Assembly: GCA_027486095.1 (NCBI GenBank)
Contig: JAIXPT010000114.1
Coordinates: 1-43,911 of the forward strand
DNA: 43,911 nucleotides
Reading direction: 5' to 3'
Source: Planctomycetaceae bacterium
GTDB lineage: Bacteria > Planctomycetota > Planctomycetia > Pirellulales > UBA1268
Shown here: piece by piece, positions 9,220 to 32,983 of the stretch
Numbering within the stretch: position 1 is the first letter of the stretch
Layout of the letters: each line of letters begins with the position of its first letter
Position numbers and translations under genes: made by a program
Notes under the pieces: model-generated
What the model was told of the DNA's origin: nothing
Database searches by the model: none
The model's input: the letters and a program-made list of their open reading frames with translations, nothing else

Positions 9220-9259
9220 CGGCCGAGACTTGATGGCTTGTTTTTTCGCTTTTTGTCAC

Positions 9260-16230: not shown

Positions 16231-16258
16231 AAATTGGAAAAGGCATCATTTTATGCCT
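16231..16258 (-). terminator. Intrinsic terminator after the SNF2 gene
   Basis: The minus strand reads AGGCAT-AAAATG-ATGCCT followed by TTTCCAATTT. The TAA stop (16251-16253) sits in the loop. Confidence 0.5.
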
Positions 16259-19109
16259 GTTCTGCCGGTCCGGACGGCAAGAGGACGTAGGCGCCCAGCA
16301 CGTCTACGGGCAGTTGCGGGCGGACGTCGTACTTGAGGCCCTTGATCCGGCTCTCGTCCCGCAGCTGGCGGTGGACGGCCAGAAGTGTCTTCGCCCGCTC
16401 GGCCGCGAAGCCGTCGAGATGCGGAGCGAGGGCGGCGGTGGCGTCTACGACCTTGCCCACGAACTGACGAGCCTGCTCCGGGGCGATGTTGGCGTCGGGG
16501 GCGGCCGTCAGCAGAGTCTCGGCCTGCTCGGGCGAGAGCCAGGAAGCCTGCTCCGGGGCGCCCTCGAAGCCCACGATGCAGCACTCCTCGGCCAGTAGCT
16601 CGCGGGTCTCGCTGCCCACCGTCCGCAGGATGTGGAATCGCAGCCGCAGCAAGAGGAGCGTGGTGCGCTTGGCGACGGCCTGCGTGCGGATCGCCCCCGA
16701 CCGGGCCGCCTTCGACGCCGCCGGCTCGTCGATCGCCGTGCCCACGAGAAAACTCGCCAATGCCTCGACGAACGGGTGCGTGCGGACGAGCAGGATCGTC
16801 TTGTCCACGTGGGGCAGCTCGAAGACCGCGTCGAACCGGTCAGGTAGGCCCTCGGGCAGGCCGGCTTTGAAAGCCGGATCGGTCGCCGTAAGGTCGATCG
16901 ACAGCATCGTGCGGCCGCCGGCCGTCTCGACCTGCTTCACGATGCCGCCGAGCGTTTCCACCGCCCGCGTCACGAATCGCTCCACGTCCACGGTCTTGCC
17001 GATCGACTGGCAGGCGTCGATCCAGCTTGCCGCCACGTCTGTGCGAATCGCCTCCTGGGCAAACATCGTGCGGGTGCGCTTCGACCGCTCGGCCTCCCGA
17101 TCCCACTCCGCGTGAAGATCTGTGGTGGTCGGTTTGAGATACTCCTCGACCTCGGGGAGCAGCTTTTGCGTGGCCTTGGCTGTGCCGCCCCGCAGCAAGA
17201 GCCCCTCGAAGATCGCCTCGATCGCCTTCTCCGTGTTGATCGGCACAGGCACGCTCACGCCCAATGTCTTCTGGATGCTGCGGTGCTTGTTGATGAGGAT
17301 GTCGAGGACGATGCCGTCGATGCCGTTGTCGGCCCCGTAGAGGAAGGCGATCTCCACCGTGGGCTGCCGCTGGCCATAGCGATCCACACGGCCCTCACGC
17401 TGCTCATGGCGGGTGGGATTCCAGGCCAGGTCGTAGTGGACGACGGCGTCGAACGATTCCTGCAGGTTGATGCCCTCGGACAGGCAGTCGGTGGCGACGA
17501 GCAGCCGCTTCTCGAATGCGGCAAGTTTCTCGACCCGCTCCTCCCGTTCGGCCGGCGGCAACGCCCCGGTGACGCAATCGATCTCGAGACCTTTGACGGC
17601 GAGGCGGTTTCGCAGTTCTGCCGCCACATACTCGGCTGTTGCGATGTAGCGGCAGAAGACGATCGGCGATCGCTTCCGCTTGAGCATGTCCTTGAGCAGC
17701 TTGACGAGGGCGGCGAGTTTGGCGTCGGCGTCGCCCTCCAGTTCTGAGGCCCGCTTGGCGAGCGTTTGCAGTCGGCGGCGGTCGGTCGGGGTAGGGGAGT
17801 CGTCGATCTCTGCCCCGGCCGAAGCATCGTCTGCCTCGTCAGCGTCCTCAGTGTCGGCATCGGTGGCGGCCGCTCGCCCCAACTCGTTGGCTTCCTCCTC
17901 CGACGCCGCCCCCAGGCCACGGGCCCGGTTCACGAGCGTCGCGGCCGCGGCAGCCGGACTCGACGAGAGGCTTCTCAAGAGAGCGATTGCGCTCCACCAC
18001 CGCACCCGCTGCCGACGCTTGTCTTCCCCCTCTACGGAGACGAGTTCCCGGGCGAAGTCGAGGCAGTCATCGAAGAGAGCCTTGTAGGGAGCCGACAGAG
18101 AGTAAGTGAGATCCTTGTGGACCTCCCGCTTTGGAAACGGCGTGGCAGCGTCGAGATAGGCCTCGATGTCGGCGCGGCGCCGCTGGATGAAGTGGCCCGC
18201 AAGGTGGCGTCGCTGTGTCTCGTGGGCCGGGCCGGAGAGATCCTCTGGCAGGTCGGCGAGGGTGGGGTCGAGCAGGCCGACGAGCGAGCGGAAGGCGGCC
18301 TCGTTGCCGCTGTGGGGCGTGGCCGTGACGAGGACGAGGTGGCGATCGGGCGACTTGGCGAGGTCGAGAAGCAGCTCGTGCCGCTGATGCCGTGAGCCGC
18401 GGGACTCGACGTCGCGGGTGCAGGTGTGGGCCTCGTCCACGATCACCAGTTCCGGGCACGTGCGGAGGAAGTCGGCTCGATAACGATTCGACTTGATGAA
18501 GTCGATCGAGATCACGAGGTGGTCGTGTACCTCGAAGATCGACTGGTCAGCGGCACACTCCCGCTCGAGCCGAGCGACGGTGCTCGCCAGCACGAGCTTG
18601 GCGTCGATGTGGAACTTGGCAGAGAGTTCCCGCTGCCACTGCTCTGCGAGATGTGGCGGGCAGAGCACGGCCAGTCGCTTTGCCTCACCGCGAGCGAGCA
18701 ACTCGGCTGCAATGAGGCAGGCCTCGACCGTCTTGCCCACGCCCACGTCGTCGGCGATCAGCACCCGGGCCTTGGGCTGCTTGAGAGCCACGAGCAGGGG
18801 CACGAGCTGATAGGGACGCGGCGTCACCGCGATAGAGCCAAATGAGCGGAAGGGGCCGGCACTGTTGCGAACGCCAAGCCTGACCGCGTCGCGAAGCAGC
18901 CCGCAGGAGCGGTGGTCGCCAGTGTGGACGGGGTCGGGCGGCGTGAAGACAGCGGGCTCAATCGGCTCGAGATCGGGCACAATGCCCGTGACTTCTTCCG
19001 CCACGCCGGCCAGCGGCCGCAGCATGACAAGGTGATCCTGCGACTCGGGCAGCACGACCCATTCCCGGCCACGGGCCTTCACGAGTGTTCCAATCGCGAA
19101 GCGACTCAT
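16251..19109 (-). CDS. SNF2-family helicase; candidate DISARM DrmD
   Basis: Motif I ADDVGVGKTVEA. Motif II LVIVDEAHTC. Helicase-C LLVATDCLSEGINLQ. Motif VI YDLAWNPTRHEQREGRVDRYGQ. Start set at ATG 19107-19109 (MSRFAIGTLVKARGREWVVL), which overlaps the upstream TGA as ATGA. The ORF-track extension to 19397 is Arg/Pro-rich and lies inside the preceding gene. Confidence 0.9.
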   Translation of the reverse strand: MSRFAIGTLVKARGREWVVLPESQDHLVMLRPLAGVAEEVTGIVPDLEPIEPAVFTPPDPVHTGDHRSCGLLRDAVRLGVRNSAGPFRSFGSIAVTPRPYQLVPLLVALKQPKARVLIADDVGVGKTVEACLIAAELLARGEAKRLAVLCPPHLAEQWQRELSAKFHIDAKLVLASTVARLERECAADQSIFEVHDHLVISIDFIKSNRYRADFLRTCPELVIVDEAHTCTRDVESRGSRHQRHELLLDLAKSPDRHLVLVTATPHSGNEAAFRSLVGLLDPTLADLPEDLSGPAHETQRRHLAGHFIQRRRADIEAYLDAATPFPKREVHKDLTYSLSAPYKALFDDCLDFARELVSVEGEDKRRQRVRWWSAIALLRSLSSSPAAAAATLVNRARGLGAASEEEANELGRAAATDADTEDADEADDASAGAEIDDSPTPTDRRRLQTLAKRASELEGDADAKLAALVKLLKDMLKRKRSPIVFCRYIATAEYVAAELRNRLAVKGLEIDCVTGALPPAEREERVEKLAAFEKRLLVATDCLSEGINLQESFDAVVHYDLAWNPTRHEQREGRVDRYGQRQPTVEIAFLYGADNGIDGIVLDILINKHRSIQKTLGVSVPVPINTEKAIEAIFEGLLLRGGTAKATQKLLPEVEEYLKPTTTDLHAEWDREAERSKRTRTMFAQEAIRTDVAASWIDACQSIGKTVDVERFVTRAVETLGGIVKQVETAGGRTMLSIDLTATDPAFKAGLPEGLPDRFDAVFELPHVDKTILLVRTHPFVEALASFLVGTAIDEPAASKAARSGAIRTQAVAKRTTLLLLRLRFHILRTVGSETRELLAEECCIVGFEGAPEQASWLSPEQAETLLTAAPDANIAPEQARQFVGKVVDATAALAPHLDGFAAERAKTLLAVHRQLRDESRIKGLKYDVRPQLPVDVLGAYVLLPSGPAEQA

Positions 19110-22100
19110 GGGGCCTGCCTTCCAAAGAGCCCGGGATGGGCGGCCACTGTGTCTTCCCAGTCGCCCTGAGCCGTGAATCGCAGGACGGTCCAGCCACAGT
19201 CGTTCACACACGCCTCCTGCTCGCGGTCGCGGGCCTGGCGGGTGGGGAACTCGTGCATCGGGCCGTCCACGTAGACGATCGTCATGTCGTCGGTATAGAC
19301 GAAGTCGGGGCGTGTCAGGCAGCCGTTGAGCGACGTCGGCACGTGCTGGGCGGCAGTGGGCAGTTTCAGATTGCGGGCTTCGAGGAACTCGAGCCACGCA
19401 CGTTCAAGACTGCTTTCACAGCGGCCAAGCAGGCTCTGGAGATGTGCCGCCCGCGGGGCTGCCGAAGACGAGGCCGCCACGCCAGCCGTCGCAAGCTGCA
19501 GGAGAAAGTCGCGGATGAGGTGGCGGTTGAGACGGTGGTGGTCGGGCTGGTTGGCATACGTCATTAGGCAGTCGTAGCAGGCCGTTGAGCAGTCTTCGCT
19601 CGCCCGCGGCGCTCGCTTGCGGTCCTCGCCCGTCGTGGGGTCGAAGTGGCAGATCTCGAGGGCCTGTCGAGCCACGCGGCGGAGGGCGTCGGGCTCCGCC
19701 TGCAGCCGCTGCAGAACGCCGGCGCCGCCTTCGCTCGATTCGAAGAAGAGAATCTGCCGCCGAATGTCGCGGCTCGGCATCGGCTCCGCGGCAAGCTCCT
19801 GGTCTTCCAGTTGAAACTCCACCTGGATCGCCGCCTTAAGGGCAGCCTGCAGGGATGCCATAAAGTCGAGCGGCGCGTCGCCCGTCGGCTCGAAGAGCAG
19901 CGTGTTGCGGGTGTCGGTGACGAACGGGATCACGCGGGCGACCTGCGGTCCTTCCACCTCGGCATCGCCATCGCCGGGCCGGTTTTCAGGATCGCCCACC
20001 CATTCACCAGTCTGTTCGTTGATATGGAAACCTTGTCGGTTTTCCAGCTTCTGGCGGAACCAGCCGAAGTTGATCCGCCACAGCTCGGCATTGCGGCCGA
20101 ACGTGAGACGGGCGAGAGGAATGCCACTGCACGTGACATCGCTGGTGGTGAATGACGGGACGCCGCCCGCCCGCTGGAAGCGGAACGCCGTCCGCACGTC
20201 GAAGCCCTGCTTCTGCCGCTCGTCTTCGTCGCAACTGATCCGCTCACGGCGGCGGGTGAGCACGTTGGTCAGCCGCAGCAGGCGGCCCTCCGCCTCAGGC
20301 AGCTCCGCATGGCAAAACTCGCAGCGGTCGTCGTCTGCCGCACCATCGACGGGGTGGAGATAGCCACAGGCGCGGCACTGCTTGGCCTTATGAAGCACGA
20401 GCCTCTGCTCGGAGTCGCTCGGCGGCAGGAGCACTTTTGTGACCTGATACCGCTGTCCCTCGTGGTAGACGAGGGACTTAGGGCCAAACTCGCTGATCGC
20501 CAGGAACCGGGGCCGGTTGAGGTATTCCTGGTCGCGGGCGCCAGCGCGCCCCGGGATGAAGGCCGAGAGCGGCAGCCGGGGGAAGTTGTAGCCCGGGAGA
20601 AAGCCCTCGCTGGCGAAGTAGCGATAGGAGTAGAAGTCGGACTGGTGACTCCCGGAGGTGTCTTGATTGAGCAGCAGGTCACGCTGGTTCTCGGCCTCTT
20701 GCCGAAACCGTTTCGCCTCGGCCTTATGTCGTGGGGAGATGGAGTTGTCGTTCTCCCGCTTGTGCTCGCGCTCCCGCTGGGCCATCGCCGCTCGGTAGAG
20801 CTGCCGCCAACGGTCGCAGGAACGATCGAAACGCTCCGGCAACTGGGCAAGCACCTCGTCGAGCCACGCGGGGGTGTACCAGCCGGCGACAGCCAGTTTC
20901 GGTGCGATCGAATCGAGCAACTGCCGGGCACGGCGGCGGGTGCGGGTCATCGCCGGTGCATTGTCGAGATGGCTCTGCACCTCGGCCGACAGCGGCATCC
21001 GCGGCTGCTGGTCGAGCATGAGCAGGTCGCGGAGGCTGTCACGGAGGTTGAGCCCCGCTTCCGACAGCCAGATCGCATGGACGTGCGACCGGACGAGCTC
21101 CTCGTTGGCGACGTCGACTCGCGGCGGTGCCACCGAGCCGGCAACCATCTTCTCCTGGCGCTGGAAGAAGTACTGGTCGTGTGAACTGCCGGCCGTGCAG
21201 TAGGTGATCACGATCGCAGGCTGGCCGCTCCGGCCAGCACGCCCGGACCGCTGGGCGTAGTTCGCAGGTGTCGGAGGCACATTGCGCAGGTTGACGGCGT
21301 TCAGATCGGCGATGTCGACGCCGAGCTCCATTGTCGGGGAACAGAACATGACGGGGAGCTTTCCAGCGCGGAACTCCGCCTCCCGCTCCTCCCGCTTGTC
21401 AGACGGCACTTGCGCGGTGTGTTCACGGCCCTCCATGCCGGCCACGTCGATGGCCGCAGTCTTGTAGAAATTCACGAAGAACTTGTTGGGCCGCAGGCCT
21501 GCCGCCGGTGAACGTGGCACCCGCAGCGGGCAGCGGAACGCCTGCGTGCCGTCAGCCGGCACCCAGCGGAGCGTGGAGGCATTGAGTTGGTAGGCCGGAT
21601 CGTCGGCCTTGCCCGAACAGACGAGATTCGTGCGAGTGAGCACGCGGCAGATATCACGAATGACGCCCTGCACTTCATCGAGCGGCACTCCAGCGGCAAT
21701 GTTGCCGGGCCGGCGCAGATAGCGGCCGAGCGTGCCGCGGGCGCTCAAGAAGACATTCGGCGAGCGCGCGTCGTTGCCCTTTGCACGGGGCTGTGCCAGC
21801 CGGGCCGTGACGAGCTCCTCCTCGGGATCGATCTTCCAGCCCTCGACGAGCCATTGGCTGCTTTCCCGCTTTGTCGCCTCCTGCCACTGCTCCGTCAGGC
21901 AGTCGGCCTGAATGGCTAGTTCCCGACGCAGGTAGTTGAGGAGCGTCTTGCACACCTCATGCCGTGCCTCGCCCGACGCGGCCACGAGGCAATGATGGGT
22001 GCCCTGCCAGTCGGCCGCGCTGTTGCAAATGTCTGCGAGCGATTCGTATTCGACCGTCAGCAGGCCGCACTGCTCGAGGTTGGGCATAGAGAGCCGCCAG

Positions 22101-24346
22101 CCTCGTTTCATATCGAGGAACAGCCGGTAGGTGAGTACGTCGCGCATGGCGCGTTCCGTGCTCTTCTTGGCGTTGTATTGGGCGTCGGGCTGGACGGCGT
22201 AGAGCTTGTTCGCGTGGCCGTCGGCGTCTTTCGGCAGCCCAGCCTCGAATGCCTCGAACATCCGCTGCGGGAGGTCGCGATACTCGAGGCCCTCGGAGCC
22301 CGCCTTCGCTGCCGCGGCGTAGAGGCTGCCCCGCACGAGTGCGATCTGCACGAAGTCGTTGAAGTGGCCCGCCTGAAGTGACGCATCCTGCCGGTTGTCG
22401 GTGAACGACAGCAGTTTCTGGGCCTGCGGATCGAGCTGACTCTCCTTGCGGAGGTAGGTGACCGCCGTCGTCGCGATCAGAGTCGTGGCGCTCGACCGGG
22501 CACCGAATCCCACTTCACCGAGCACCGGCCGGTCGGTGCCGCGTCGATTGGCATACGAGACACCACAGGCCAGGCAGAAGTGGAACGGGTTGGCGATGAA
22601 GTGGCAGGCGAGCCCGTGCGGGTCGGTGTGGCCGGCCACATCGACATGCTCGAGTTGCGGCAGCTGCTCGACGCGACTGCGCTTGAGCACTTCCGATTCG
22701 TTGCGGAGTTCCTTCCAGTCTTCCGTTACCCGTGCCAGAATCGCCTCGGCCGTGTGGTCGGCCTGGGGCCACGCCCGCTCGGGATCGGAGCTGAAGTAGA
22801 GGTATCCCGGAGTCAGTTCCCCGGTCTTTGAAAGGTCGCCCAGATCTCGCGGTTCGAAGGTGGGATCGCCGCCTCGGGTCGGAACGTTCCTCGCGACCGA
22901 GTAATACTCCTGCCCGCATTCCCTGCAGAAAGCGAGTGGAAAGAGCAGGGCTTTGTCGTCGTGCGGGTCGGTGCGGACGGCGTCGGCCGTAATGAATCGT
23001 TTTGATTCCGGTTCGAGCGTCGCGTAGAGAGTGTCGCCGCGGCTTAAGAACTGATGGAGGCGGAATGCAAAAGCGGGCCGACCTTCGGGTGAGCGGGCCT
23101 GCGAGTAGCCGGCCATGAGTTGGTTGGTGATGAGGTCCCTGCAGGCATCGGAGTCGACGCCAGTGACGCCTGCAAGCAGCGTGCCCGCCATGTCGATCGT
23201 CTTGGGAACCGCTCGCACAAGACGGTCTTCAGCCTCGGCCTTGCGGACGCCGAACGTGGATTCGATCCAGCTCGAAAGCGGGTCTTCCAGAAATGCTTCG
23301 TAAGCCGCTAGCGGGGCGGAACGACCTTTGACCCGGGCCGTGAGGCTGCTCGTGAAGACCTTGTCTGACGGGTCGCCGACCGGCGTCGCTCGACGCAGGG
23401 TCTCGCCAATCACCGACTCAGGACGGACTTCGGCCCCAAAAAGGTCGGTAGCCACCTTCGCAATCTCACGGCGCTGCTCGTCGAGCGTGCCCGGCCCGGC
23501 AATCGTGGCGGAGGTGCCGATGTATTGAAGGTTCGGGGATTCGAGCTGCTCACGCAGCCGTCTGCAGAGCATCGCCACGTCAGCACCCTGCCTGCCGCGG
23601 TAGGTGTGAAGTTCGTCGAGGACAAGAAATTTCAGACCCTTGGCCGCTTCGACCAGTCGTTTTTCACCGATCCGCGTGAGGATCAGTTCGAGCATGACGT
23701 AATTCGTCAGAATGACGTCGGGCGGGTTGTCGCGGATCTCGTCACGCTCCTCCCGCTTTTCCTGGCCCGTGTACCGCCGCACTCGTACCGGCGGGCGGTC
23801 CTTGCTGAACGGAGCTCGCTCGAGAAACTTTGCCAACTCGCCCAACTGGCTGTTGGCCAGCGCGTTCATGGGGTAGACGACGATGGCCTGGACACCCCGC
23901 CCGGAGCCGTTTCGCAGGACATGGTCGACGATCGGCAGGATGTACGAGAGGCTTTTGCCGGAGCCCGTGCCCGTGGTCAAAACGTAGTTGGCGCCGGTAC
24001 GGGCCGTACGGACGGCCTGATCCTGATGCAGGTGCAGTCGCATCGGGTAACCGGGGAAGGGGTCGTTTTCCTTCTTGCCGGCCCGGAACACCTCGGAGCA
24101 GGTGCGGTGCAGCACGCCCTGGGCGACCAGATCATCGATCATGCCGCCCGGCTCGAAGGACGGATTGAGCTGGATCAGCGGCGACGGCCAGAGGAGGCCG
24201 CTGGCAAGCGATTCCTCGACCTCTTCCTTGAGCCGCGCGTCGGAAATCTCCACGAAGCTGCGGATGAACGAGTCATAGTTCTGGACCAACCGATCCCGCA
24301 TTTCGAAGACGTTCATGCCTGTGCTTCCGCGCTGCATTGAGACCAA
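19106..24346 (-). CDS. DEAD/DEAH-box helicase fused to a DUF1998 zinc domain and a C-terminal DUF559/Vsr-like module; candidate fused DrmA-DrmB (DruE-like alternative)
   Basis: Motif I TGTGSGKSL. Motif II LVLDELHTYRG. Motif III GTSATI. FTDNRQDAS. Motif VI QRSGRAGRSGQPA. Zinc ribbon CRACG..CEFCH (about 20300-20377). DUF1998-type CSTACYDCLMTYANQPDHHRLNR (about 19568-19591). Tail RPDFVY..IVYVDGPMH..GWTVLRF (19109-19417). The true start may be MNVFEMRDRL at 24316. Confidence 0.9.
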   Translation of the reverse strand: MVSMQRGSTGMNVFEMRDRLVQNYDSFIRSFVEISDARLKEEVEESLASGLLWPSPLIQLNPSFEPGGMIDDLVAQGVLHRTCSEVFRAGKKENDPFPGYPMRLHLHQDQAVRTARTGANYVLTTGTGSGKSLSYILPIVDHVLRNGSGRGVQAIVVYPMNALANSQLGELAKFLERAPFSKDRPPVRVRRYTGQEKREERDEIRDNPPDVILTNYVMLELILTRIGEKRLVEAAKGLKFLVLDELHTYRGRQGADVAMLCRRLREQLESPNLQYIGTSATIAGPGTLDEQRREIAKVATDLFGAEVRPESVIGETLRRATPVGDPSDKVFTSSLTARVKGRSAPLAAYEAFLEDPLSSWIESTFGVRKAEAEDRLVRAVPKTIDMAGTLLAGVTGVDSDACRDLITNQLMAGYSQARSPEGRPAFAFRLHQFLSRGDTLYATLEPESKRFITADAVRTDPHDDKALLFPLAFCRECGQEYYSVARNVPTRGGDPTFEPRDLGDLSKTGELTPGYLYFSSDPERAWPQADHTAEAILARVTEDWKELRNESEVLKRSRVEQLPQLEHVDVAGHTDPHGLACHFIANPFHFCLACGVSYANRRGTDRPVLGEVGFGARSSATTLIATTAVTYLRKESQLDPQAQKLLSFTDNRQDASLQAGHFNDFVQIALVRGSLYAAAAKAGSEGLEYRDLPQRMFEAFEAGLPKDADGHANKLYAVQPDAQYNAKKSTERAMRDVLTYRLFLDMKRGWRLSMPNLEQCGLLTVEYESLADICNSAADWQGTHHCLVAASGEARHEVCKTLLNYLRRELAIQADCLTEQWQEATKRESSQWLVEGWKIDPEEELVTARLAQPRAKGNDARSPNVFLSARGTLGRYLRRPGNIAAGVPLDEVQGVIRDICRVLTRTNLVCSGKADDPAYQLNASTLRWVPADGTQAFRCPLRVPRSPAAGLRPNKFFVNFYKTAAIDVAGMEGREHTAQVPSDKREEREAEFRAGKLPVMFCSPTMELGVDIADLNAVNLRNVPPTPANYAQRSGRAGRSGQPAIVITYCTAGSSHDQYFFQRQEKMVAGSVAPPRVDVANEELVRSHVHAIWLSEAGLNLRDSLRDLLMLDQQPRMPLSAEVQSHLDNAPAMTRTRRRARQLLDSIAPKLAVAGWYTPAWLDEVLAQLPERFDRSCDRWRQLYRAAMAQREREHKRENDNSISPRHKAEAKRFRQEAENQRDLLLNQDTSGSHQSDFYSYRYFASEGFLPGYNFPRLPLSAFIPGRAGARDQEYLNRPRFLAISEFGPKSLVYHEGQRYQVTKVLLPPSDSEQRLVLHKAKQCRACGYLHPVDGAADDDRCEFCHAELPEAEGRLLRLTNVLTRRRERISCDEDERQKQGFDVRTAFRFQRAGGVPSFTTSDVTCSGIPLARLTFGRNAELWRINFGWFRQKLENRQGFHINEQTGEWVGDPENRPGDGDAEVEGPQVARVIPFVTDTRNTLLFEPTGDAPLDFMASLQAALKAAIQVEFQLEDQELAAEPMPSRDIRRQILFFESSEGGAGVLQRLQAEPDALRRVARQALEICHFDPTTGEDRKRAPRASEDCSTACYDCLMTYANQPDHHRLNRHLIRDFLLQLATAGVAASSSAAPRAAHLQSLLGRCESSLERAWLEFLEARNLKLPTAAQHVPTSLNGCLTRPDFVYTDDMTIVYVDGPMHEFPTRQARDREQEACVNDCGWTVLRFTAQGDWEDTVAAHPGLFGRQAP

Positions 24347-24387
24347 TCCGGAAAGTTATCCGCGTGCAGGGACAACCTTGGTCCGGG

Positions 24388-24442
24388 CGGGGTTGAACCC
24401 CGTCTGTAGGGTGGGCAGTATAGACGGATTTCCTGCGGAAAT
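24388..24442. promoter_or_regulatory. Palindromes in the divergent intergenic region (candidate operators)
   Basis: CGGGGTT-g-AACCCCG at 24388-24402 (7-bp arms, 1-nt centre). ATTTCC-tgc-GGAAAT at 24428-24442, about 36 nt upstream of GTG 24478. ATCCGCGT also occurs twice (about 24358 and about 24450). Confidence 0.3.
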
Positions 24443-24477
24443 GACGGGCATCCGCGTTTGAAGCGGCCGGAGCGATT

Positions 24478-26532
24478 GTGGTTGCACCTCAGTACAGTTC
24501 GGAAGATGCCGCGAGGATCAAATCGCTCCTCCTGAACGGGCTGTCTGTGAACGAAGTGGCCGCGGCTACAGGCTTCACTCCGTACACAGTCACGGCCGCC
24601 GTGTCCGCCACGGAAGGCATGACGATCCCAGAGTTTCGCCACGCCAACAACCAGACATCGCCTCCGACGCAGGTCTCGCCGCCGACTGGCCCGAAGCCGC
24701 TGCTGCCGCGCACGCGCATTCCTGTGTCAGGCGCGCGGAAGTCCACCCGCACGCTGGCCGCCAAGACGTGTCCGTTTTGCAGACAGCCATTCACGCCTCG
24801 GAAAGAATCGCAGAAGTTCTGTTCGCACTCCTGTAGCAGCAAGGCCACGGTGCCTCGCGAGCGGCGGAGGCGAGTCAAGATTTCGAAGACCTGCGAGAAG
24901 TGTGGGACGCCTTACGACACCTTTCGGCCAACCCAGCGTTATTGCAGTGACGCGTGTCGAATTGCCCGAATCTCAGCCGACAAGACGTGGCTCACCGAAA
25001 TTCCCTGCAAGTTCTGCGACAAAATGTTTCGGCCTCCGCAACGGGGTTACAAGTTCTGCAGCCGGCCGTGTGCCTATAAGGGAAAAGCCGCAGGCAGTTT
25101 CGTCAGGGGAACCATCGCGATGCCGGACGGAGCACGTGTGCCCTACATAGGCACGTACGAGCTCGTGTTCCTCCTGTATGCGGCCAAGCATCCCGAGGAG
25201 TTCCCCCACGTTGCTCCGTGGTCGGTCGGGATCCCGTACGAACTCGATGGCAAACGACACACGTACTACCCTGACTTTCTCGTCGAGTGTGCCGGCAAAC
25301 AGCCGCTCATGGTCGAACTGAAGTCATCACGAACAATCGAGTTCTCCCAGTCTCGCCATGAGGCCAAGGTCGCTGCTGCTCGAGCATGGTGCGCCAGTAA
25401 CTCGCACGACTATCTGCTGCTGGGTGAATGGGAAGATGCGTTTCGCCGCATGTGCGACTTTGTGCGGGAGCGTCATAACGTCGACGCGCTTGCGCAGCGA
25501 TCGCGTGAGGACAGCAAGGTTGAGGATCGGCATTGCATCGAGTGCGGCGGCCTCATTCCACGCAAAGCGCCGTCGATTTATCGCACCCGCGTGTTCTGCT
25601 CGACGGAATGCCGCAACAAATCCGACAAACGCAAGAAGCCGATCCTGCCCTCCAGTCGGCACACGTGCCCAACGTGCAAGAAGCCGTTCACGGGATGGAA
25701 GCGGAGAAAGTATTGCTCGAAAGCTTGCTACACCGCTGCGCAGCAGACGTTGGCACCACGGCCATGCGCTGTGTGCGGAACCACCTTCCAGCCAACGAGC
25801 GCAAAGAGCGTGGCATGTGATTTGGAATGCGGGACCATCTATCGCGCTGCATCCCGTATGGGCCTGTCAGCAGAAGCCTATCGCGAGCGACAGCGGGCCG
25901 AGGTGGAGGCCCTCCCGGCGGAGGCGACCTGCAGTCGTGGCGAGAAGGTGTTCAAGCCCACTCTTGCAAACCGGAAGCATTGTCGGTGGTGTCGCGATGC
26001 AGGTGGAGATGCATGGACTCTCGAAACCATGCTCGCCAGGCTGAGGGCGATTCGGCAACATCTCGGCGGCAGGGTGCCGACATACTCCGAGATCTACGAC
26101 GATGCCGATCTCAAGGCACAATTCAACAGCTGTTCGCTTGCGGGAGCTTTATTTCGATTCAACCAAGACCAGGGCATCGCGAGCTACGCCGATTTCTGCA
26201 AGAAATATCTTGATTGGGACGTGCCGAGAAAACTGACCAAAGCACGGACGGCATGGGTGCTTGAGGAACTGGTCCGAACATGTGGCGGTGTGCCAGTCGG
26301 GGTTAGTCAGATGGAGTCGGTGTTTGGCCACCGAGGCATGACGCTCATGGCCGCAATCAAAAAACACTTCGGCAAGACGCTTGATGAATACTGTGCTGCC
26401 AAAAGGCTCAAGAGAGTAACGGCCGAGGCGGCTCGTCGTGCGCTCGACAGCGCGGCTCTGCCGGCGGGCGTAGCAAGGGGCGCGGCCCCAACGGCACGCG
26501 TTGGACGTCCCCCTCGACGGAGTTATCCTTGA
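24478..26532 (+). CDS. Multi-zinc-ribbon (FCS-type) protein with an N-terminal HTH and a central TnsA-N/PD-(D/E)xK-like nuclease core; no characterised relative known to me
   Basis: HTH-like LLLNGLSVNEVAAATGFTPYTV. Repeats CPFCRQPF..KFCSHSC, CEKCGTPY..RYCSDAC, CKFCDKMF..KFCSRPC, CIECGGLI..VFCSTEC, CPTCKKPF..KYCSKAC, CAVCGTTF..VACDLEC, plus a degenerate ..KHCRWC. Nuclease-like YELV...HTYYPDFLVE...MVELK. GTG start. Confidence 0.8.
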   Translation: MVAPQYSSEDAARIKSLLLNGLSVNEVAAATGFTPYTVTAAVSATEGMTIPEFRHANNQTSPPTQVSPPTGPKPLLPRTRIPVSGARKSTRTLAAKTCPFCRQPFTPRKESQKFCSHSCSSKATVPRERRRRVKISKTCEKCGTPYDTFRPTQRYCSDACRIARISADKTWLTEIPCKFCDKMFRPPQRGYKFCSRPCAYKGKAAGSFVRGTIAMPDGARVPYIGTYELVFLLYAAKHPEEFPHVAPWSVGIPYELDGKRHTYYPDFLVECAGKQPLMVELKSSRTIEFSQSRHEAKVAAARAWCASNSHDYLLLGEWEDAFRRMCDFVRERHNVDALAQRSREDSKVEDRHCIECGGLIPRKAPSIYRTRVFCSTECRNKSDKRKKPILPSSRHTCPTCKKPFTGWKRRKYCSKACYTAAQQTLAPRPCAVCGTTFQPTSAKSVACDLECGTIYRAASRMGLSAEAYRERQRAEVEALPAEATCSRGEKVFKPTLANRKHCRWCRDAGGDAWTLETMLARLRAIRQHLGGRVPTYSEIYDDADLKAQFNSCSLAGALFRFNQDQGIASYADFCKKYLDWDVPRKLTKARTAWVLEELVRTCGGVPVGVSQMESVFGHRGMTLMAAIKKHFGKTLDEYCAAKRLKRVTAEAARRALDSAALPAGVARGAAPTARVGRPPRRSYP

Positions 26533-26619
26533 CCCATTGTTGGGTTGACCGAAACGCGAGGTCGAATGCCTAAGGCCGGCATTCGTATCTCTTTAGGCAC
26601 CGCCTGATGAACGTCACGC

Positions 26620-29600
26620 ATGACAACGCAGCAAACCTCTTCAGACATTCGGGCCTTAGTGCAGGCTGCCGGTCGAATTTGGGTTCGCCGCCTCATCGAC
26701 TACTCTCGGTCGAACTCGTTGCTCTTTTACCGCGACCTCAAGGTCGGCACGTTCGATTTAACGCCCTATAAAGGCGCGTCTGAGAAGCTGCTGTCCGGTG
26801 ATGCGCTCACCGTGGATCAGCTTCTCGCGATGCGACCGCGACAGCAGCAGCGTGATCCTGTTGCGCGCGAGCGGGCTGAGGAGGAGGCGAGGCAGAAGAT
26901 TCGTACGGTCTTCGTCGCGCTGCGCCGGAAAGCCCTAGGAAACCTCGAAGAGAAGGGCATCCAGACACTTCACCTGGCCGTCGGCATGGCTACATGGCCA
27001 GCCGCCGATGGTGGCCGTCCATATGCGGCACCGATCTTGCTGGTCCCCGCGACGATCGACTCGCGAGGGCGCTCCGGTAATGACTTGCGGCTGGCCGCAA
27101 CCGGCGAACCCCGCCTGAATCCTGTGCTGCTCTCCGTTCTAGAGGAATCGCAGGACGTGCGGATTGACGCCGCGGCCGTAGTAAAGGAATGCAGCGAGGA
27201 GGGGGAAACAGGGCAGTGGCGCATCGAGCCGGAGAAAGTCTTTGCTGCCATTCGGGCTCGGACACGGTCTGTGAACCAGTTCGCAATTGAGAGCCGGTGC
27301 ATCGTTGCGAACTTTCAGTTCGCCAAGATGGCGATGGTGGAGGACTTGAAGCGAAACGAAGACGCCATGGCGTCGAGCCCCTTTATCGCAGCGATTGCCG
27401 GCCATTCCTCGTCTCGGCAGCAATTGGCCCAGGCCAGTTTTGATGTCGAGCCCCGGCAACTGGACGAAATGCCCAGTGATACGGACTTTCTCGTCCTCGA
27501 TGCTGACTCAACCCAGCAGCGGGCCATTGTCGCAGTAGGGAAGGGCCTCAACTGCGTCGTCCAAGGCCCTCCTGGCACAGGCAAAAGTCAGACGATTGCA
27601 AATCTCATCGCGCAGAGCGTGGCGGAGGGAAAGCGGGTTCTGTTCGTCGCGGAAAAGCGGGCAGCACTCGATGCGGTTCTCAAGCGGCTCACGCATCCGG
27701 ACGTCGGCTTGGGCCACCTCATACTCGATCTGCACGGGGCATCGGTGTCTCGTAAGGATGTGATGGCGAAGTTGGCACGGACGCTCGAAAGCATTCGTCA
27801 GAGTTTGCCGGTCGAGGGAGCGGAAAACGTTTATCGTGAATTCGATGCTCGCCGCAGAAAGCTCAACGAGCATGCTCGCCTCGTGAACACAAGCCGGGCT
27901 CCCACGGGCCTATCCATGAATCGCGTGATCGGTCGTTTGTTGCGGCTTCCCAAGGAGGCAGCATCACAGATGCGATTCCGCGGCGATGCGTTTGGGAGGC
28001 TGACGCAGGAACGCGCCGAGGAAATCAAGCGGCTGTTGAGGGAATGCGGCGCTAGTCGATCGCTGTTCTTGGGCGAAGATGCTTCGCCCTGGAACGCTGC
28101 CGCCCTCACGGACGGGCGGAAAGCTCAGCAAGCAGTGGACTTGGCCGGGAAGCTGGCCCGAGAGTTGCTTCCTCGAGCCGACAAGCTTCTTACGGAATGG
28201 ACCCGGAGTTCCGGAGTCACCAAGCCTAATGCGGTAGAAACCGCATTTACGCTGGCACGTTGGATCGTCGACACCGAGAGCTATCGGCAGAAGTTCAAGC
28301 CCGAGATATTCAGTTCTGCGCCGGCAAGCCTGGCAGCCGCGCTCGCACCTGCCAAACGCGGTGCCGTGTTGGCACTGTGGGCCTGGCTTTCCGACGGCAA
28401 ATACCGAGCGGCGCGCAGACAAATGCGGCGTCTCGCGATTGCCGACACGCCCGTGGATCAGTTGCAGGCGGGAGCACTGCGGGCCGCGGAGCTTGTGACG
28501 CAATGGAAGAAAGTCCGACCTGCAGGCGGTGTGCCCGATACGAGCACGGCGAAAGACTTGCTGGGGTGCTTGTCAAAGCTCTCGGCGGCACTCAAGGAAT
28601 TCCATGCGTTATCGGGGCTCGACGTCGCCAAGGGATTGAGTTTCGCGGATTCGCAAGCCCGCGTGGAGTCGCTGGCAGCGGATCAGCGGACGCCCTATCA
28701 ACTCCCGTCGGTCCATGAACTCCGGCGGCAGATTCGGGATCAAGGGCTTGAGCAGCTTCTTCAGGAGCTCCGGTCGCAGAATCTCCCCGAGAGCCTGTGG
28801 GAGCAGAGGTTTGAATACGTGTGGCTGCACTCGGCCTTGGACAACATATTGGCATCTGAGCCAGCGTTGGCCAGTTTTAATGGCCGAACGCATGAGCACA
28901 TGATCGAGGAGTTTCGGCGGCTCGACCGTGAGCGAATTGGGCTCGCCGCGGCTCGTGTGCGCCGACTGCACGCGGAGCGCGCCGTTGCCGCGCTAAACGA
29001 GCACTTTGATCAGGGCAACCTGGTTCGATCCGAGGCCAGGAAACAGGCGAGGCATATTCCTCTCCGTGATCTCCTCTCCCGGGCGCCCGACGTCCTCACG
29101 CGGGTTGCGCCATGTTGGATCGCGAGCCCACTTTCCGTCAGTCAACTTCTCGACGGAGGAAAACGGCACTTCGATATCGTCATATTCGACGAAGCAAGCC
29201 AAATCCTCCAGGAAGAGGCGATGCCGGCGCTATGGCGAGCAGAACAGGTTGTCGTGGCTGGGGATCGACATCAGTTGCCGCCCACGACCTTCTTCGCCAC
29301 AGCCGTGGACGGGGAAGACATGACGGAAGAAGAGAAAGCGGGCGCCGAGGCGGCAATGACCGCCACCAGTGCCGTCGGCGGCTTCGAAAGCCTGTTGGCC
29401 ACGCTCGAGGCGTTTCTGCCGAACTGCCCGCTCGAATGGCATTATCGCAGCGAGGACGAGAGGCTTATTGCGTTTAGTAATGAGCACATCTATGGCGGGC
29501 GTCTCGTCACCTTTCCGACCGCCAGAACCCATGAAGCGGTGCGCCATGTGCTGGTTGCGCATGACCGCGCCTTGGGCGGTCAGGAGGAGAGCGCATCGAG

Positions 29601-30744
29601 GGAAGTCGAGGAAATCGTGCGCCTTGTAATCGAGCATGCTCAGACGCGTCCTGAGGAATCGCTCGGCGTCATCGCCATGGGTATTAAGCATGCCAATCGG
29701 GTCCAGGCGGCACTGGACCGAGCGCTGGAAGCTCGCGCGGATCTCGCGGAGTTCTTCTCGCTGGACCGAGATGAACGCTTCTTCGTCAAGAATCTTGAGA
29801 CAGTTCAAGGCGATGAGCGAGAGGCGATCATTCTGACCATCGGTTACGGCAAGGCTGCTAATGGGGATTTGCCACACCGGTTTGGCCCCCTCACGCACGA
29901 GGCCGGGCATAGACGGCTCAATGTGGCCGTCACGCGAGCCAAACGTCGGATGACGGTCGTAAGCTCGTTTGCCCATCATGAGATCGATCTCGCCCGATCC
30001 GGCAGCAAAGGCGTTCAGTTGCTCAAGGCATATCTGGAGTACGCGGCCAGCGGCGGTACCCGGCTGGCGCTGGCAGAGGTCGCCGGTGAAGTGCCCTTGA
30101 ATCCTTTTGAAGCTGATGTGCAAGACGCTCTCGAAGCGGCTGGGATTCACACGCGACCCCAGTTTGGAGCATCTCGCTACCGGATCGATTTGGTGGCCAT
30201 GCATCCGCAGAAAAAAGGCCGAGCGGTCCTTGCGATCGAGTGTGACGGAGCCACGTATCACTCCAGCTCGACGGCGCGAGATCGCGACCGTTTGCGTCAA
30301 ATGCACCTTCAACGCCTCGGCTGGCGATTCCACCGCATCTGGTCAACTGACTGGTTCTTCAGTCGGGAATCGGAAATGGCACGGCTCGTAGCCGCCTTTA
30401 GTGATGCGGTTGAGCGGGCAGATGAAGCGGATTCTGGAGAGGGGCGTGAAGAAGCCGAGGAGGAGCGACACGAGGCGATCGTGAATCAGCCGGCGGTTGC
30501 GGTCATGCAGGCCTCTCGGGGGCCAAAGCCAAGTATTCGGCGTCGGGACTCTATCGACAGCTACACAAACGGGGAATTTCAGCAGCTTGCGGAGTGGATT
30601 GCATCAGACGGCCTTCTGCGCACCGACGACGAATTCGTTCGGTGCATGCTCGACGAGTTGCCCTTTAATCGTCTCGGTGCCCGCATCCGTGAACGTCTGG
30701 AGGGTGTCGTGCGGCAGATGACGCGAACGCGGCGCCCACGGTAA
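26620..30744 (+). CDS. DUF4011 / SF1 (Upf1-like) helicase / DUF559-Vsr-like endonuclease / DUF3320 protein (Hhe-like single-gene defence architecture)
   Basis: Motif I VQGPPGTGKSQTIANLI. Motif II DIVIFDEASQI. VVAGDRHQLPPT. VQGDEREAIILT. NVAVTRAKRRMTVV. Then YRIDLV..LAIECDGATYH..RDRDRLRQ..LGWRFHRIWSTDWF, followed by a ~150-aa tail. Confidence 0.9.
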   Translation: MTTQQTSSDIRALVQAAGRIWVRRLIDYSRSNSLLFYRDLKVGTFDLTPYKGASEKLLSGDALTVDQLLAMRPRQQQRDPVARERAEEEARQKIRTVFVALRRKALGNLEEKGIQTLHLAVGMATWPAADGGRPYAAPILLVPATIDSRGRSGNDLRLAATGEPRLNPVLLSVLEESQDVRIDAAAVVKECSEEGETGQWRIEPEKVFAAIRARTRSVNQFAIESRCIVANFQFAKMAMVEDLKRNEDAMASSPFIAAIAGHSSSRQQLAQASFDVEPRQLDEMPSDTDFLVLDADSTQQRAIVAVGKGLNCVVQGPPGTGKSQTIANLIAQSVAEGKRVLFVAEKRAALDAVLKRLTHPDVGLGHLILDLHGASVSRKDVMAKLARTLESIRQSLPVEGAENVYREFDARRRKLNEHARLVNTSRAPTGLSMNRVIGRLLRLPKEAASQMRFRGDAFGRLTQERAEEIKRLLRECGASRSLFLGEDASPWNAAALTDGRKAQQAVDLAGKLARELLPRADKLLTEWTRSSGVTKPNAVETAFTLARWIVDTESYRQKFKPEIFSSAPASLAAALAPAKRGAVLALWAWLSDGKYRAARRQMRRLAIADTPVDQLQAGALRAAELVTQWKKVRPAGGVPDTSTAKDLLGCLSKLSAALKEFHALSGLDVAKGLSFADSQARVESLAADQRTPYQLPSVHELRRQIRDQGLEQLLQELRSQNLPESLWEQRFEYVWLHSALDNILASEPALASFNGRTHEHMIEEFRRLDRERIGLAAARVRRLHAERAVAALNEHFDQGNLVRSEARKQARHIPLRDLLSRAPDVLTRVAPCWIASPLSVSQLLDGGKRHFDIVIFDEASQILQEEAMPALWRAEQVVVAGDRHQLPPTTFFATAVDGEDMTEEEKAGAEAAMTATSAVGGFESLLATLEAFLPNCPLEWHYRSEDERLIAFSNEHIYGGRLVTFPTARTHEAVRHVLVAHDRALGGQEESASREVEEIVRLVIEHAQTRPEESLGVIAMGIKHANRVQAALDRALEARADLAEFFSLDRDERFFVKNLETVQGDEREAIILTIGYGKAANGDLPHRFGPLTHEAGHRRLNVAVTRAKRRMTVVSSFAHHEIDLARSGSKGVQLLKAYLEYAASGGTRLALAEVAGEVPLNPFEADVQDALEAAGIHTRPQFGASRYRIDLVAMHPQKKGRAVLAIECDGATYHSSSTARDRDRLRQMHLQRLGWRFHRIWSTDWFFSRESEMARLVAAFSDAVERADEADSGEGREEAEEERHEAIVNQPAVAVMQASRGPKPSIRRRDSIDSYTNGEFQQLAEWIASDGLLRTDDEFVRCMLDELPFNRLGARIRERLEGVVRQMTRTRRPR

Positions 30745-31257
30745 CGACTCAATTCGACTCCTGGTTCGTAGGCGACCGGATCGTCCTTTGCTGAGTCGTT
30801 CGAATGCGAGCTGAGCGAGAGCGTTCCACGTTGATGCAATGTGAGAGAAGGGCATGCGTTGTTGTGCCTGACGCCCGCGTCCCATTTGTGGCCGAGCAGG
30901 TGCCGCAGCAGTGCCAGAAGCGAACGCGACGGACTGTCGGGGCTTGGGATCGTTCGGAATGGCTTGCTGGAGATGCAACGGGCGTATAACCGCCGACTCC
31001 AACGTTGAGTCTCCTCCTCACCCGGTGGTGCGGCACGGGGGCCTCCGGCCTTTGCTCGGCAGCCGGGCGGCCATTGCCGCCAAGGGTGGGCGTCGGCACT
31101 TCTGCGATATGAGTGCGGGGGTTCTGTATGCCCCCCGAGATCGCGTCGCCCTAAAAAACCGTTTTCCGCCGCTCTTTCGGCATAATTCCGCTTCTGAATG
31201 TCAAGGTTTCTTGCAAAAAAACTTGACACATGGGCTGGATTGGCCGAAAGTATCTAC

Positions 31258-32043
31258 ATGAGCACGCATGCCGCCACCGCCGGAATCCGCCAGCGATCGA
31301 TCGTGGGCCGCGTCCGGGCTCGGATCGAGGGGGGCGGCGAGCGCGTGTGGCGAGCTACTGATTTTCAGAGTGCCGACCGGGCATGGACCGCTCAGGCAAT
31401 CGCCCAGGCGCTGTCGCGGCTTTCCCGGCAGGGATTGGTGCGGCGGCTAGGCAAAGGCCTTTATTACCGCGGTCGGGAGACGGCGTTCGGCCCCAGCCTG
31501 CCAAGCCCCGCGATGGTGCAGAGTCTGCCGATCGCTGGTCGGAAGGTTTTTCCGTCGGGGCACGCCGCGGCCAGCATGCTTGGGCTCACGACGCAGCAGC
31601 CATCCCGCCCCGAAATCGCCACTACGGGCGGGAGCCTTCCCCGTCTGATCGTGGGCAAGCAAACCGTCATCCGTACCCGGCGACCGGAGTCCTGGCGGTC
31701 GCTCGATGCCGAGGATGCCGTGGTCTTGGAAGTTTTGCGGCAGCGCGGCTCAACCAGCGAGCTTTCAGCCGATGAAACCGTCAGGCGCCTGTTGGCGGTC
31801 GTCAACAAACCAGGGCGGTTCGTCAGGCTGTGCCGTGTGGCGGCGTCCGAGCCGCCGAGGGTGCGCGCCATGCTGGGTGCGATAGGGCAACAGTTGAGGC
31901 GGTCGCCCCGGGAGCTCGCGCGGTTGCGGGGTACCCTGAACACCTTGTCGAAATTTGATTTCGGAAAGCTGGCCGCCCTGAAGCATGCAGCTGAATGGCA
32001 GGCTCGACTGGAGAGGTCGCGTGCGTCTGTTTCAGCATCCTGA
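31258..32043 (+). CDS. AbiEi-family (type IV TA) antitoxin-like transcriptional regulator
   Basis: RVWRATDFQS...AQAIAQALSRLSRQGLVRRLGKGLYY is the wHTH N-terminus typical of AbiEi/DUF6088. It overlaps the downstream AbiEii gene. Start set at ATG 31258. Confidence 0.75.
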   Translation: MSTHAATAGIRQRSIVGRVRARIEGGGERVWRATDFQSADRAWTAQAIAQALSRLSRQGLVRRLGKGLYYRGRETAFGPSLPSPAMVQSLPIAGRKVFPSGHAAASMLGLTTQQPSRPEIATTGGSLPRLIVGKQTVIRTRRPESWRSLDAEDAVVLEVLRQRGSTSELSADETVRRLLAVVNKPGRFVRLCRVAASEPPRVRAMLGAIGQQLRRSPRELARLRGTLNTLSKFDFGKLAALKHAAEWQARLERSRASVSAS

Positions 32044-32983
32044 TTTTGGTCAGGCGATTCTGCGGGCGGCGGAGCATTTCGCAGCCCGGAAGCTGCGGCC
32101 GGCAGTCATCGAGAAGGATTATTACGTCACCGAAGCCCTCCGGATCATCGCCGAATGCGAGGGGGACAGGGCGATTTTCAAGGGCGGCACGAGCCTGTCG
32201 AAAGGCTGGGGGCTGATCGAGCGGTTTTCTGAGGATGTCGACGTGTTCATCGACATCTGCGGCGATGACCCCATGCCAGGCACGAAATCCATCGATACCC
32301 ACCTGCGGACGATACGGAATGCCATCGATCAGCATCCTGGCCTTGCCTTCAGCAAAGATCAGAGCACGACGAGCAAGGGGCTGAAGCGGGCCGATCGCTT
32401 CCTGTACGACGAGCGTATTCCCGAGATCGGTGGCCTTTCGCCGGGCGTTCTCGTTGAAACGATGGTCGCCAGCGGCAAGGCGCCGACGGAGCGGCGGCAG
32501 ATCGCTTCCTTCGTCGGCGAATTTCTTCGTGAGACAGACACGACCCTCGGATGCGATGACGAACAGCCGTTCGAAATGCTCCTGCTTCACTTTCGTCGCA
32601 CCTTCGTTGAAAAGCTGTTCGCCATTCACGCCAAGGTTGAAATCCTGAAGCAGACGGGTGAGCCGCTTGGCTCGTATGCCCGCCACTACTACGACCTCTA
32701 CTGCCTTGCGGAGAGGCCGGAGGTTCTGGCGATGCTCAAGTCGGACGAGTATGCGGTGATAAAGGCCGACTACGCCCGAATCAGCCAGGAGTTCTACGTC
32801 CGTGACTTCATCCCGCCGTCGGGGATGAACTTTCAATCGAGCGATGCGTTGTTTCCCGACCAGGCACTCGAGCAAGTACTTGCTCGAAATTACGAGGAGC
32901 AATCCAGCCTGCTGTGCTACGGGGATGCCCCGGGTTGGCAGGACATCAAAGGTCGCCTGTCCCAATTGCGACCACTGTTGTGA
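32021..32983 (+). CDS. AbiEii/AbiGii-family nucleotidyltransferase toxin
   Basis: IEKDYYVTEALR...FKGGTSLSKGWGLIERFSEDVDVFID is the DUF1814 NTase signature. GTG 32021 is preceded by GGAGAGG. ORF-track start 31985 is possible. Confidence 0.85.
   Translation: MRLFQHPDFGQAILRAAEHFAARKLRPAVIEKDYYVTEALRIIAECEGDRAIFKGGTSLSKGWGLIERFSEDVDVFIDICGDDPMPGTKSIDTHLRTIRNAIDQHPGLAFSKDQSTTSKGLKRADRFLYDERIPEIGGLSPGVLVETMVASGKAPTERRQIASFVGEFLRETDTTLGCDDEQPFEMLLLHFRRTFVEKLFAIHAKVEILKQTGEPLGSYARHYYDLYCLAERPEVLAMLKSDEYAVIKADYARISQEFYVRDFIPPSGMNFQSSDALFPDQALEQVLARNYEEQSSLLCYGDAPGWQDIKGRLSQLRPLL

Follow-up and report, generated by a model that had tools for sequence, protein, structure and literature searches.

We analysed a 43,911-nt contig of a Planctomycetaceae bacterium (JAIXPT010000114.1; the whole stretch is called the window below) and focused on a gene at 24478..26532 on the plus strand, which is predicted to encode a 684-aa modular nuclease that we named ZnTnsA. 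Its neighbours are a divergent DISARM-like operon and a helicase-nuclease gene of the Hhe/PDC-S37 type. On balance, we think that ZnTnsA is probably an autonomous, metal-dependent modular DNA endonuclease, built like a modular homing endonuclease and carried as independent cargo. Its core would be of the TnsA / T7 endonuclease I / T4 gp4 type, with E228, D266, E280 and K282 as the catalytic residues. Ten small nucleic-acid-binding modules around this core, seven zinc ribbons plus helix-turn-helix (HTH) modules at both ends, would lay the enzyme along extended DNA and set the core for cleavage. ZnTnsA would be carried as independent cargo in variable regions of integrative elements and in defence islands, and would need neither the DISARM-like operon nor the Hhe/PDC-S37 gene. 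We infer DNA cleavage, target length and specificity from sequence alone, and likewise the beneficiary, which may be the host or the element through exclusion of competing DNA, or the gene itself through homing-like persistence.

The open reading frame (ORF) begins with a GTG codon that follows a GGAG 5 nt upstream, and its start position was the same in the homologues when ten members were aligned. The homologues are also equal in length. The domains follow one another along the plus strand: an N-terminal HTH module (24478..24651, residues 1-58); zinc ribbons 1-3 (24760..25080, residues 95-201; C98/101/115/119, C139/142/156/160, C177/180/194/198); a TnsA-type PD-(D/E)xK nuclease core (25102..25482, residues 209-335); zinc ribbons 4-7 (25525..26001, residues 350-508; C353/356/374/378, C397/400/413/417, C430/433/447/451, C485/(G488)/502/505); and a C-terminal helical domain in which a second HTH module comes after a helical unit (26008..26421, residues 511-648). 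A first-pass annotation, made from the sequence only, had proposed an HTH, six to seven zinc ribbons and a TnsA-like PD-(D/E)xK core, and Pfam, a motif scan and Foldseek bore this layout out. A direct phmmer search of the whole protein against the PDB sequences gave nothing useful. The AlphaFold2 (AF2) model of ZnTnsA used below was built on the ten-sequence family alignment.

The assignment of the nuclease core rests on several comparisons. Residues 251-314 scored 35.7 bits (E 1.3e-8) in the Pfam family PF08722 (Tn7_TnsA-like_N), whose cut-off is 26.5 bits, and the Isosphaeraceae homologue likewise scored above this cut-off (28.5 bits). The motifs YELVFLLY (E228), PD266F and E280-L-K282, pointed out in the first-pass annotation, are indeed present and fit the TnsA-N / PD-(D/E)xK pattern. 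None of the four residues varied among 10 family members or among 15 more distantly related nuclease domains, over an identity range of 17% to 96%. The core was modelled with a predicted local distance difference test score (pLDDT) of mostly 81-93, in the order helix, four to five strands, helix. When we searched the PDB with Foldseek, TnsA ranked first (1t0f and 1f1z, probability 0.97-1.0), followed by Exo5, Cas4/ACE1, RecU and Hjc, so that the central region does model as a PD-(D/E)xK fold; the E-values stayed modest (7e-3), since the full 684-aa model served as the query. At the sequence level, the nuclease-domain profile picked up Tn7 TnsA (E 0.23), T7 endonuclease I (E 0.01) and a TnsA-TnsB fusion (E 2.6e-3), and the catalytic residues aligned with the ESSLE / PD / EYK motifs of the TnsA-TnsB fusion. 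The core also matched NF046055, a restriction-enzyme nuclease domain (E 3.4e-6).

The motif scan recovered six units of the form CxxC...C-x2/3-C in ZnTnsA, at C98-C119, C139-C160, C177-C198, C353-C378, C397-C417 and C430-C451. These are the positions given in the first-pass annotation, save that the fourth unit ends at C378 and not at C377. A strict pattern matched five times and a loose one six times; 2,000 shuffles gave 0.01 matches on average and never more than 1. The cysteine ligands were invariant or nearly invariant among the ten family members. A seventh unit, suspected to be a degenerate copy, proved genuine in the family: it comprises C485...C502-C505, and C488 is nearly invariant. 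In the window allele ribbon 7 is damaged, with codon 488 (25939-25941) reading GGC (Gly). The codon is TGC (Cys) in six close relatives (loci L001, L002, L003, L009, L098 and L099), and C488G is unique to the window; the change may be real and degenerating, or else an error of sequencing or assembly.

Each ribbon unit formed a beta-hairpin plus a helix in the AF2 model, and related ribbon repeats matched DUF2116, a "probable treble clef", and the N-terminus of NinG. We describe the ribbons as seven putative Cys4 treble-clef units with putative zinc binding. In PHROGs, ribbons 1-3 matched phrog_1333 (E 1.3e-9) and the ribbon region of residues 332-486 matched phrog_1271, named "HNH endonuclease" (E 1.8e-25). 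Pfam returned no zf-FCS, MYM or TRASH match at E<=10, and a profile of the ribbon unit gave non-significant full-unit matches in the PDB to the PHC1 FCS finger (2l8e, E 0.69) and L24e (E 0.24). Most PDB matches of the ribbon profile were to C2H2 arrays through the CxxCGxxF knuckle alone; we regard them as an artefact of the repeat that assigns no fold.

Both ends of the protein carry predicted HTH modules. The proposal that the first ~45 aa form an HTH was borne out, with the module extending over the first ~58 residues. In Pfam it fell below threshold with both HTH_18 (E 2e-4) and HTH_23 (E 0.048); its profile matched the HTH proteins 2lvs (5.9e-8) and Spo0J (7e-4) in the PDB; and the AF2 model of the module, four helices with pLDDT 79-86, was matched by Foldseek to NarL/DosR (probability 0.87) and also to Ada. 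The last ~170 aa, in which no motif had been recognised, contain a second copy of this HTH: hhalign paired the N-terminal module with residues 74-133 of the C-terminal domain (probability 93.7%, E 1.9e-7). Modelled alone by AF2, the C-terminal domain is helical with pLDDT 91. Its first half weakly matched PF18780 (HNH_repeat) in 5 of 11 members (E ~0.01, below threshold); PF18780 is a homing-endonuclease-associated repeat. The C-terminal domain was found too as free-standing proteins of 149-275 aa. On its own it gave no significant Foldseek match in the PDB, where AraC-type DNA-binding domains recurred at E>2, and its profile gave only non-significant PDB matches (MarA E 0.7, NLR fragments). 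The C-terminal HTH assignment therefore rests on the internal hhalign match.

The full-length protein is rare. A word-indexed search of 5.8 billion proteins returned nine homologues, and an exhaustive profile search of 1.84 billion representatives returned ~8 clusters with the full architecture. Two homologue genomes could be placed, both in the Planctomycetota: a Planctomycetia metagenome-assembled genome (MAG; 96% identity) and an Isosphaeraceae MAG (37%). Scans of metagenomes (7 loci) and species genomes (5 loci) added few new contexts. The parts of the protein, and their combination, are common. In the same profile search E<=1e-3 was reached by 6,672 proteins and E<=1e-10 by 485, largely through the ribbon repeat, which in the sampled members was joined to HNH_3 or TnsA_N nucleases. 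In BFVD, 42 structural matches reached E<=0.001; many were phage proteins of a few hundred residues, with names such as endonuclease, putative homing endonuclease, NUMOD3 and TnsA N-terminal domain. In IMG/VR, 178 stretches encode relatives of the ZnTnsA nuclease, some with ribbons as well. Among GenBank phages 118 records matched, including T4-type "head completion" gp4 homologues and, from phages of Staphylococcus, Listeria and Campylobacter, hypothetical proteins that combine ribbons with a nuclease. Full-length ZnTnsA is thus a large architecture of few lineages, built from common mobile modules and of a kind that is known but unstudied.

Comparison of ZnTnsA with three relatives gave ratios of nonsynonymous to synonymous substitution rates (dN/dS) of 0.12-0.15, versus 0.05 for the adjacent helicase. 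This indicates purifying selection on ZnTnsA, more relaxed than on the neighbouring helicase. We reject a pseudogene or chance ORF in view of the same-length homologues and these ratios, and a pure transcription regulator in view of the invariant catalytic residues. Synonymous divergence (dS) of ZnTnsA and of the helicase was 0.51 and 0.94 against L099 and 0.12 and 0.19 against L001; against L004 the two values were similar (0.98 and 1.03). From these sequence divergences, the two genes may have differing recombination histories. At another locus (L096 1685-3079), the 377-aa homologue P0009 seems under-called: tblastn aligned query residues 1-461 to one stretch starting ~500 nt upstream of the called start, and the true gene may be longer or disrupted.

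Tn7 TnsA and T4 gp4 are the characterised relatives of the core (PMC7824862, PMC1189080, PMC3424549). Packaging depends on T4 gp4, a DNase of the TnsA-like type (PMC7824862) that had been predicted earlier (PMC1189080) and is the sole relative outside transposons with reported DNase activity (PMC7824862). The TnsA-like cores of T4 gp4 and its cyanophage homologues share 27-32% identity with ZnTnsA over ~120-140 residues; T4 gp4 is, however, a small single-domain virion-assembly protein encoded in phage structural modules, without zinc ribbons or HTH. Tn7 TnsA (1f1z, 1t0f) and the TnsA-TnsB fusions share with ZnTnsA the PF08722 PD-(D/E)xK domain and the E, PD and (E/Q)xK motifs, but Tn7 TnsA lacks a zinc-ribbon array and acts only within a transposase complex. 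No study of the ZnTnsA architecture or of the family was found in the literature.

The closest relatives by design are phage proteins of 200-400 aa that combine the same two blocks, repeated ribbons around a small TnsA-like or HNH nuclease. Examples are phrog_1271, phrog_15471 and phrog_15427, the "endonuclease" of the Bacillus phage Moonbeam, the "putative homing endonuclease" of Pseudomonas phage PaBG, TnsA_N proteins of Campylobacter phages CP20/CP21, and hypothetical proteins of Staphylococcus phage S6 and Listeria phage LPJP1. In the mobile genomes that carry them, their genes seem to be free-standing. The proteins are shorter than ZnTnsA by a factor of two to three, have fewer ribbons, lack the terminal HTH and the C-terminal domain, and show 24-37% identity to ZnTnsA over parts only. 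The view that ZnTnsA has no characterised relative thus holds for the family and its closest phage relatives, for which PADLOC gave no match and the literature no study, but would be overstated as the absence of relatives, since ribbon arrays with a nuclease are widespread in phages and mobile elements (phrog_1271, the 6,672 repeat carriers, the 42 BFVD matches). The common zinc-ribbon repeat has no Pfam family and phage genomes label such proteins "HNH endonuclease" or "hypothetical"; characterising the repeat would give it a function.

The overall design of ZnTnsA resembles that of modular homing endonucleases. In I-TevI and I-HmuI, a catalytic domain is joined to zinc-finger, NUMOD and HTH DNA-binding modules that read a long target, and the domain map of ZnTnsA has a similar layout, a small nuclease tied to a string of putative DNA-binding modules. 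Phage proteins annotated as HNH or homing endonucleases contain relatives of each module. ZnTnsA differs from them in its catalytic fold, PD-(D/E)xK and not GIY-YIG or HNH; its genes lie in bacterial chromosomes or integrative elements and encode far larger proteins.

We compared the window with other loci (L-numbers designate loci or contigs with ZnTnsA homologues or relatives of the helicase operon, P-numbers the homologue proteins; two of the context look-ups fell on contigs of only 2.6-3.8 kb). The divergent DruE-like helicase gene was kept beside all homologues of at least 70% identity (L001-L004, L009, L094/95, L098, L099 and L101), and these loci are whole-island relatives of the window. 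An Hhe gene lay 87 nt downstream on the same strand in the homologues of at least 88% identity whose contigs reached far enough. At the 70% homologue in L094, homology to the window was lost at 26417, and no match to Hhe was found within the 338 nt read downstream. The helicase operon also occurs without ZnTnsA. The gene is absent upstream of it in L107, where the helicase is 88% identical, and in L105/L106 (74%). Homology between the window and L107 DNA ends at 24428, 50 nt before the ZnTnsA start codon. In L105-L107 it is toxin-antitoxin pairs (Gp49/HTH_37, HicAB), and not directly the methylase, that follow the helicase-SNF2 pair. L105 even shares the serine-recombinase region (75% DNA identity) together with the helicase operon, yet lacks ZnTnsA, and we therefore reject a core function of ZnTnsA for the carrier element. 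Such presence and absence beside conserved genes might fit a homing-type gene, with one boundary mapped and no clean insertion seen.

The homologues of 37-51% identity have neither the helicase operon nor Hhe as a neighbour. Those of 50% identity (L005-L007) lie on lower-GC contigs, next to integrase-like genes, a ScoMcrA-like EVE-HNH enzyme, a PIF1 helicase and 550-740-aa nucleases with DUF4379 fingers, MTES_1575 or an I-TevI DNA-binding domain. These neighbour nucleases match PHROG "homing endonuclease" families, and the PIF1/RecD-like helicase of L006/L007 matches PDC-S68/S53 in PADLOC. L006 and L007 share a ScoMcrA-like/PIF1 flank that is 90% identical (L006 4966-9897, L007 414-5330), while their ZnTnsA copies are 66% identical (L006 10283-11967, L007 10283-11958). 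At the sequence level, this divergence suggests allele replacement or rapid diversification of the nuclease gene. In L007, two tandem genes for ~700-aa DUF4379-finger nucleases (5397-9960) are inserted between PIF1 and ZnTnsA, and L005 is without the ScoMcrA-PIF1 block. The Isosphaeraceae homologue (L010) lies directly downstream of a 127-aa BrxA-like fragment (9354-9737), near a truncated serine recombinase (7159-8025) and two IS66 transposases; its GC content at third codon positions is below 0.62 and that of its listed neighbours is above. The L010 region looks like a decayed mobile-element or BREX remnant. The remaining contexts contain an IS4-type transposase, a PIN gene or two Hsp70-like genes. 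Among the homologue neighbourhoods compared, no conserved partner gene stood beside ZnTnsA.

Several observations weigh against reading ZnTnsA as an autonomous nuclease of homing-endonuclease design. Nothing in the window matches the left flank of L107, and neither a clean pair of alleles with and without the insertion nor a target site could be defined. At ~680 aa, ZnTnsA is two to three times the size of a typical free-standing homing endonuclease, and it lies outside any intron or intein. None of the 80 best viral contigs of IMG/VR encodes the full-length protein. PHROGs and BFVD labels of the "homing endonuclease" kind are annotations with no assays behind them, and we found no biochemistry in the literature on the ZnTnsA family or on its phage relatives that combine zinc ribbons with a TnsA-like nuclease. 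The "FCS-type" label fits the ribbon motif but is statistically unconfirmed against Pfam or the PDB; ribbons of this kind may alternatively bind proteins, RNA or metals; and the window allele has lost one ribbon-7 ligand through C488G.

A possible but less probable explanation is that ZnTnsA defends against phages or plasmids on its own, as a restriction-like or type IV-like nuclease that recognises invading DNA through its ribbon/HTH array and cuts it. This explanation overlaps with the modular endonuclease that we favour and differs only in making the host the beneficiary. The gene had first been placed in a defence-island slot where a new sensor or effector would be expected, and several of the ~six independent contexts do contain defence genes: Mrr, AAA_21, the DISARM-like operon, Hhe and AbiEi/AbiEii in the window, the ScoMcrA-like EVE-HNH enzyme and the PIF1/RecD-like helicase in L006/L007, and the BrxA fragment in L010. 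The core resembles restriction-enzyme nucleases, both through NF046055 and through homologue P0012, which matches PADLOC REase_III (E 2.6e-7) over only the nuclease end of this type III restriction enzyme model. ZnTnsA is under purifying selection, and its alleles at one locus diverge far more than their flanks do (66% versus 90% identity), as in defence cargo. However, no PADLOC model matches the six family members tested (PADLOC-DB 2.0 gave no match for the window protein, P0006, P0010, P0011 and P0015), and there is no cognate methyltransferase or evident self/non-self discrimination. The contexts are also few, no partner is conserved in them, and mobile-element linkage accounts equally well for the association with defence because most of them hold transposases or integrases. 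Enrichment of ZnTnsA in defence islands is suggestive in several of these contexts.

A more specific version, which we regard as speculative and unlikely, holds that ZnTnsA is a poly-zinc-ribbon nuclease in which each ribbon and terminal HTH reads a few base pairs, so that the array addresses a long site and is swapped and diversified by mobile elements and defence islands to exclude competing DNA. Diversification of the alleles is proposed because those at one locus are 66% identical between flanks that are 90% identical. If true, ZnTnsA would be a new single-gene effector of defence or competition with a potentially decipherable recognition code. Should the ribbon array read DNA sequence, the family and its thousands of shorter phage relatives would be the bacterial equivalent of engineered zinc-finger nucleases and would represent a new mode of DNA recognition.

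ZnTnsA could also be a structure-specific nuclease that acts on branched DNA, junctions or ends and serves replication, recombination or packaging of the element, in the manner of T7 endonuclease I, lambda Rap/NinG or T4 gp4. We judge this quite improbable. The match of the nuclease profile to T7 endonuclease I, the matches of the core to T4-type gp4 "head completion" proteins in 70+ cyanophage records, the resemblance of the ribbons to the NinG/Rap N-terminus and the recurrent position of the family beside helicases (DruE-like, Hhe, PIF1) are all consistent with it. Against it, the carrier element exists without ZnTnsA in L105, nothing links the gene to a capsid, terminase or replication module, and ten DNA-binding modules exceed what known junction resolvases use.

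It is very unlikely that ZnTnsA is a sensor, effector or regulator of the DISARM-like operon or forms a two-gene system with Hhe/PDC-S37. The identity of both neighbours was supported by PADLOC, and ZnTnsA indeed lies 131 nt from the divergent helicase gene and 87 nt from the gene that follows it. Conservation of the helicase beside the homologues of at least 70% identity and of Hhe beside those of at least 88% would fit such a role; the GC content of ZnTnsA (~0.60) equals that of Hhe and not that of the helicase operon (0.65-0.67); and the N-terminal HTH could bind the shared intergenic region. However, the link to DISARM or Hhe fails when the loci are compared: operons at 88% and 74% lack the gene, the 70% homologue has no Hhe match in 338 nt, and the 37-51% homologues occur elsewhere. 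The DruE-like helicase family, with >7,900 matches across phyla, is also about a thousand times commoner than the ~8 clusters of ZnTnsA.

The intergenic sequences point in the same direction. Of the 131-nt divergent region (24347..24477), the part up to ~24428 belongs with the helicase operon and the last ~50 nt occur only where ZnTnsA is present. An inverted repeat upstream of the DruE-like helicase gene (24395-24408 / 24419-24432, CCGTCTGTA ... TATAGACGG) has equivalents in L099/L004/L094, and its block is kept in L107. Because L107 retains it without the nuclease gene, we assign it to the helicase operon, of which it is probably a regulatory element. In the gap between ZnTnsA and Hhe lies a terminator-like hairpin (26563..26585, plus strand), which would separate the two genes; the evidence is weak, with the pattern scan giving 2 sites versus 2.9 in shuffles, and L001 and L009 retain an intact stem but L099 a degraded one. 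A scan of 24000-27000 found no sigma-70-like promoter, which is uninformative for a Planctomycetota genome. In PADLOC, PDC-S37 belongs to the "S" series of single-gene candidates, and Hhe is reportedly a single-gene system. Homologue neighbourhoods contained no conserved partner, and by presence and absence in the sequences compared the component role is largely refuted. As a caution, a gene wedged between two defence systems need not belong to either; here, presence and absence separated ZnTnsA from both.

A Tn7-like transposon can be dismissed, as the first-pass annotation had done: the TnsA C-terminal domain gave no Pfam or NCBIfam match in ZnTnsA (NF033179 TnsA_like_Actin reached 12.8 bits against a cut-off of 110), and neither TnsB nor TnsC was found among the large ORFs of the window (Pfam and PADLOC; ORFs below ~270 aa were partly scanned) or in the called neighbourhoods of the homologues.

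The other genes of the window were mapped as follows. On the minus strand lie a P4-type primase with DUF3987/Toprim (185-1978), an AAA_21 ATPase (5038-6468), Mrr (6661-7572), an AAA_22 / PDC-S59-like protein (7686-8936), a 550-aa protein without a match (9260-10912) and the DISARM-like genes identified with PADLOC: a DrmMI-type methylase (10990-15120), a DpdE/DrmD-type SNF2 helicase (16251-19397) and the DruE-like DEAD/MZB helicase (19106-24346). On the plus strand, ZnTnsA is followed by the PDC-S37/Hhe helicase-nuclease (26620-30744, PADLOC) and by DUF6088 plus AbiEii (AbiEi/AbiEii, 31198-32983). The serine-recombinase region shared with L105 spans ~36.6-38.8 kb. From Mrr, the AAA_21 ATPase, AbiEi/AbiEii, the P4-type primase and the serine-recombinase region, the stretch 185-43217 therefore looks like a defence island on an integrative element.

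Two features of the helicase genes were seen in passing. The DruE-like helicase carries a C-terminal Vsr/DUF559-type endonuclease, and several of its homologues have a precomputed PF04480 assignment and the JGI name "very-short-patch-repair endonuclease". The SNF2 helicase ORF (1048 aa) runs 292 nt into the end of the DruE-like gene; because the gene calls of its relatives are 948-954 aa, its true start is probably ~100 codons further in.

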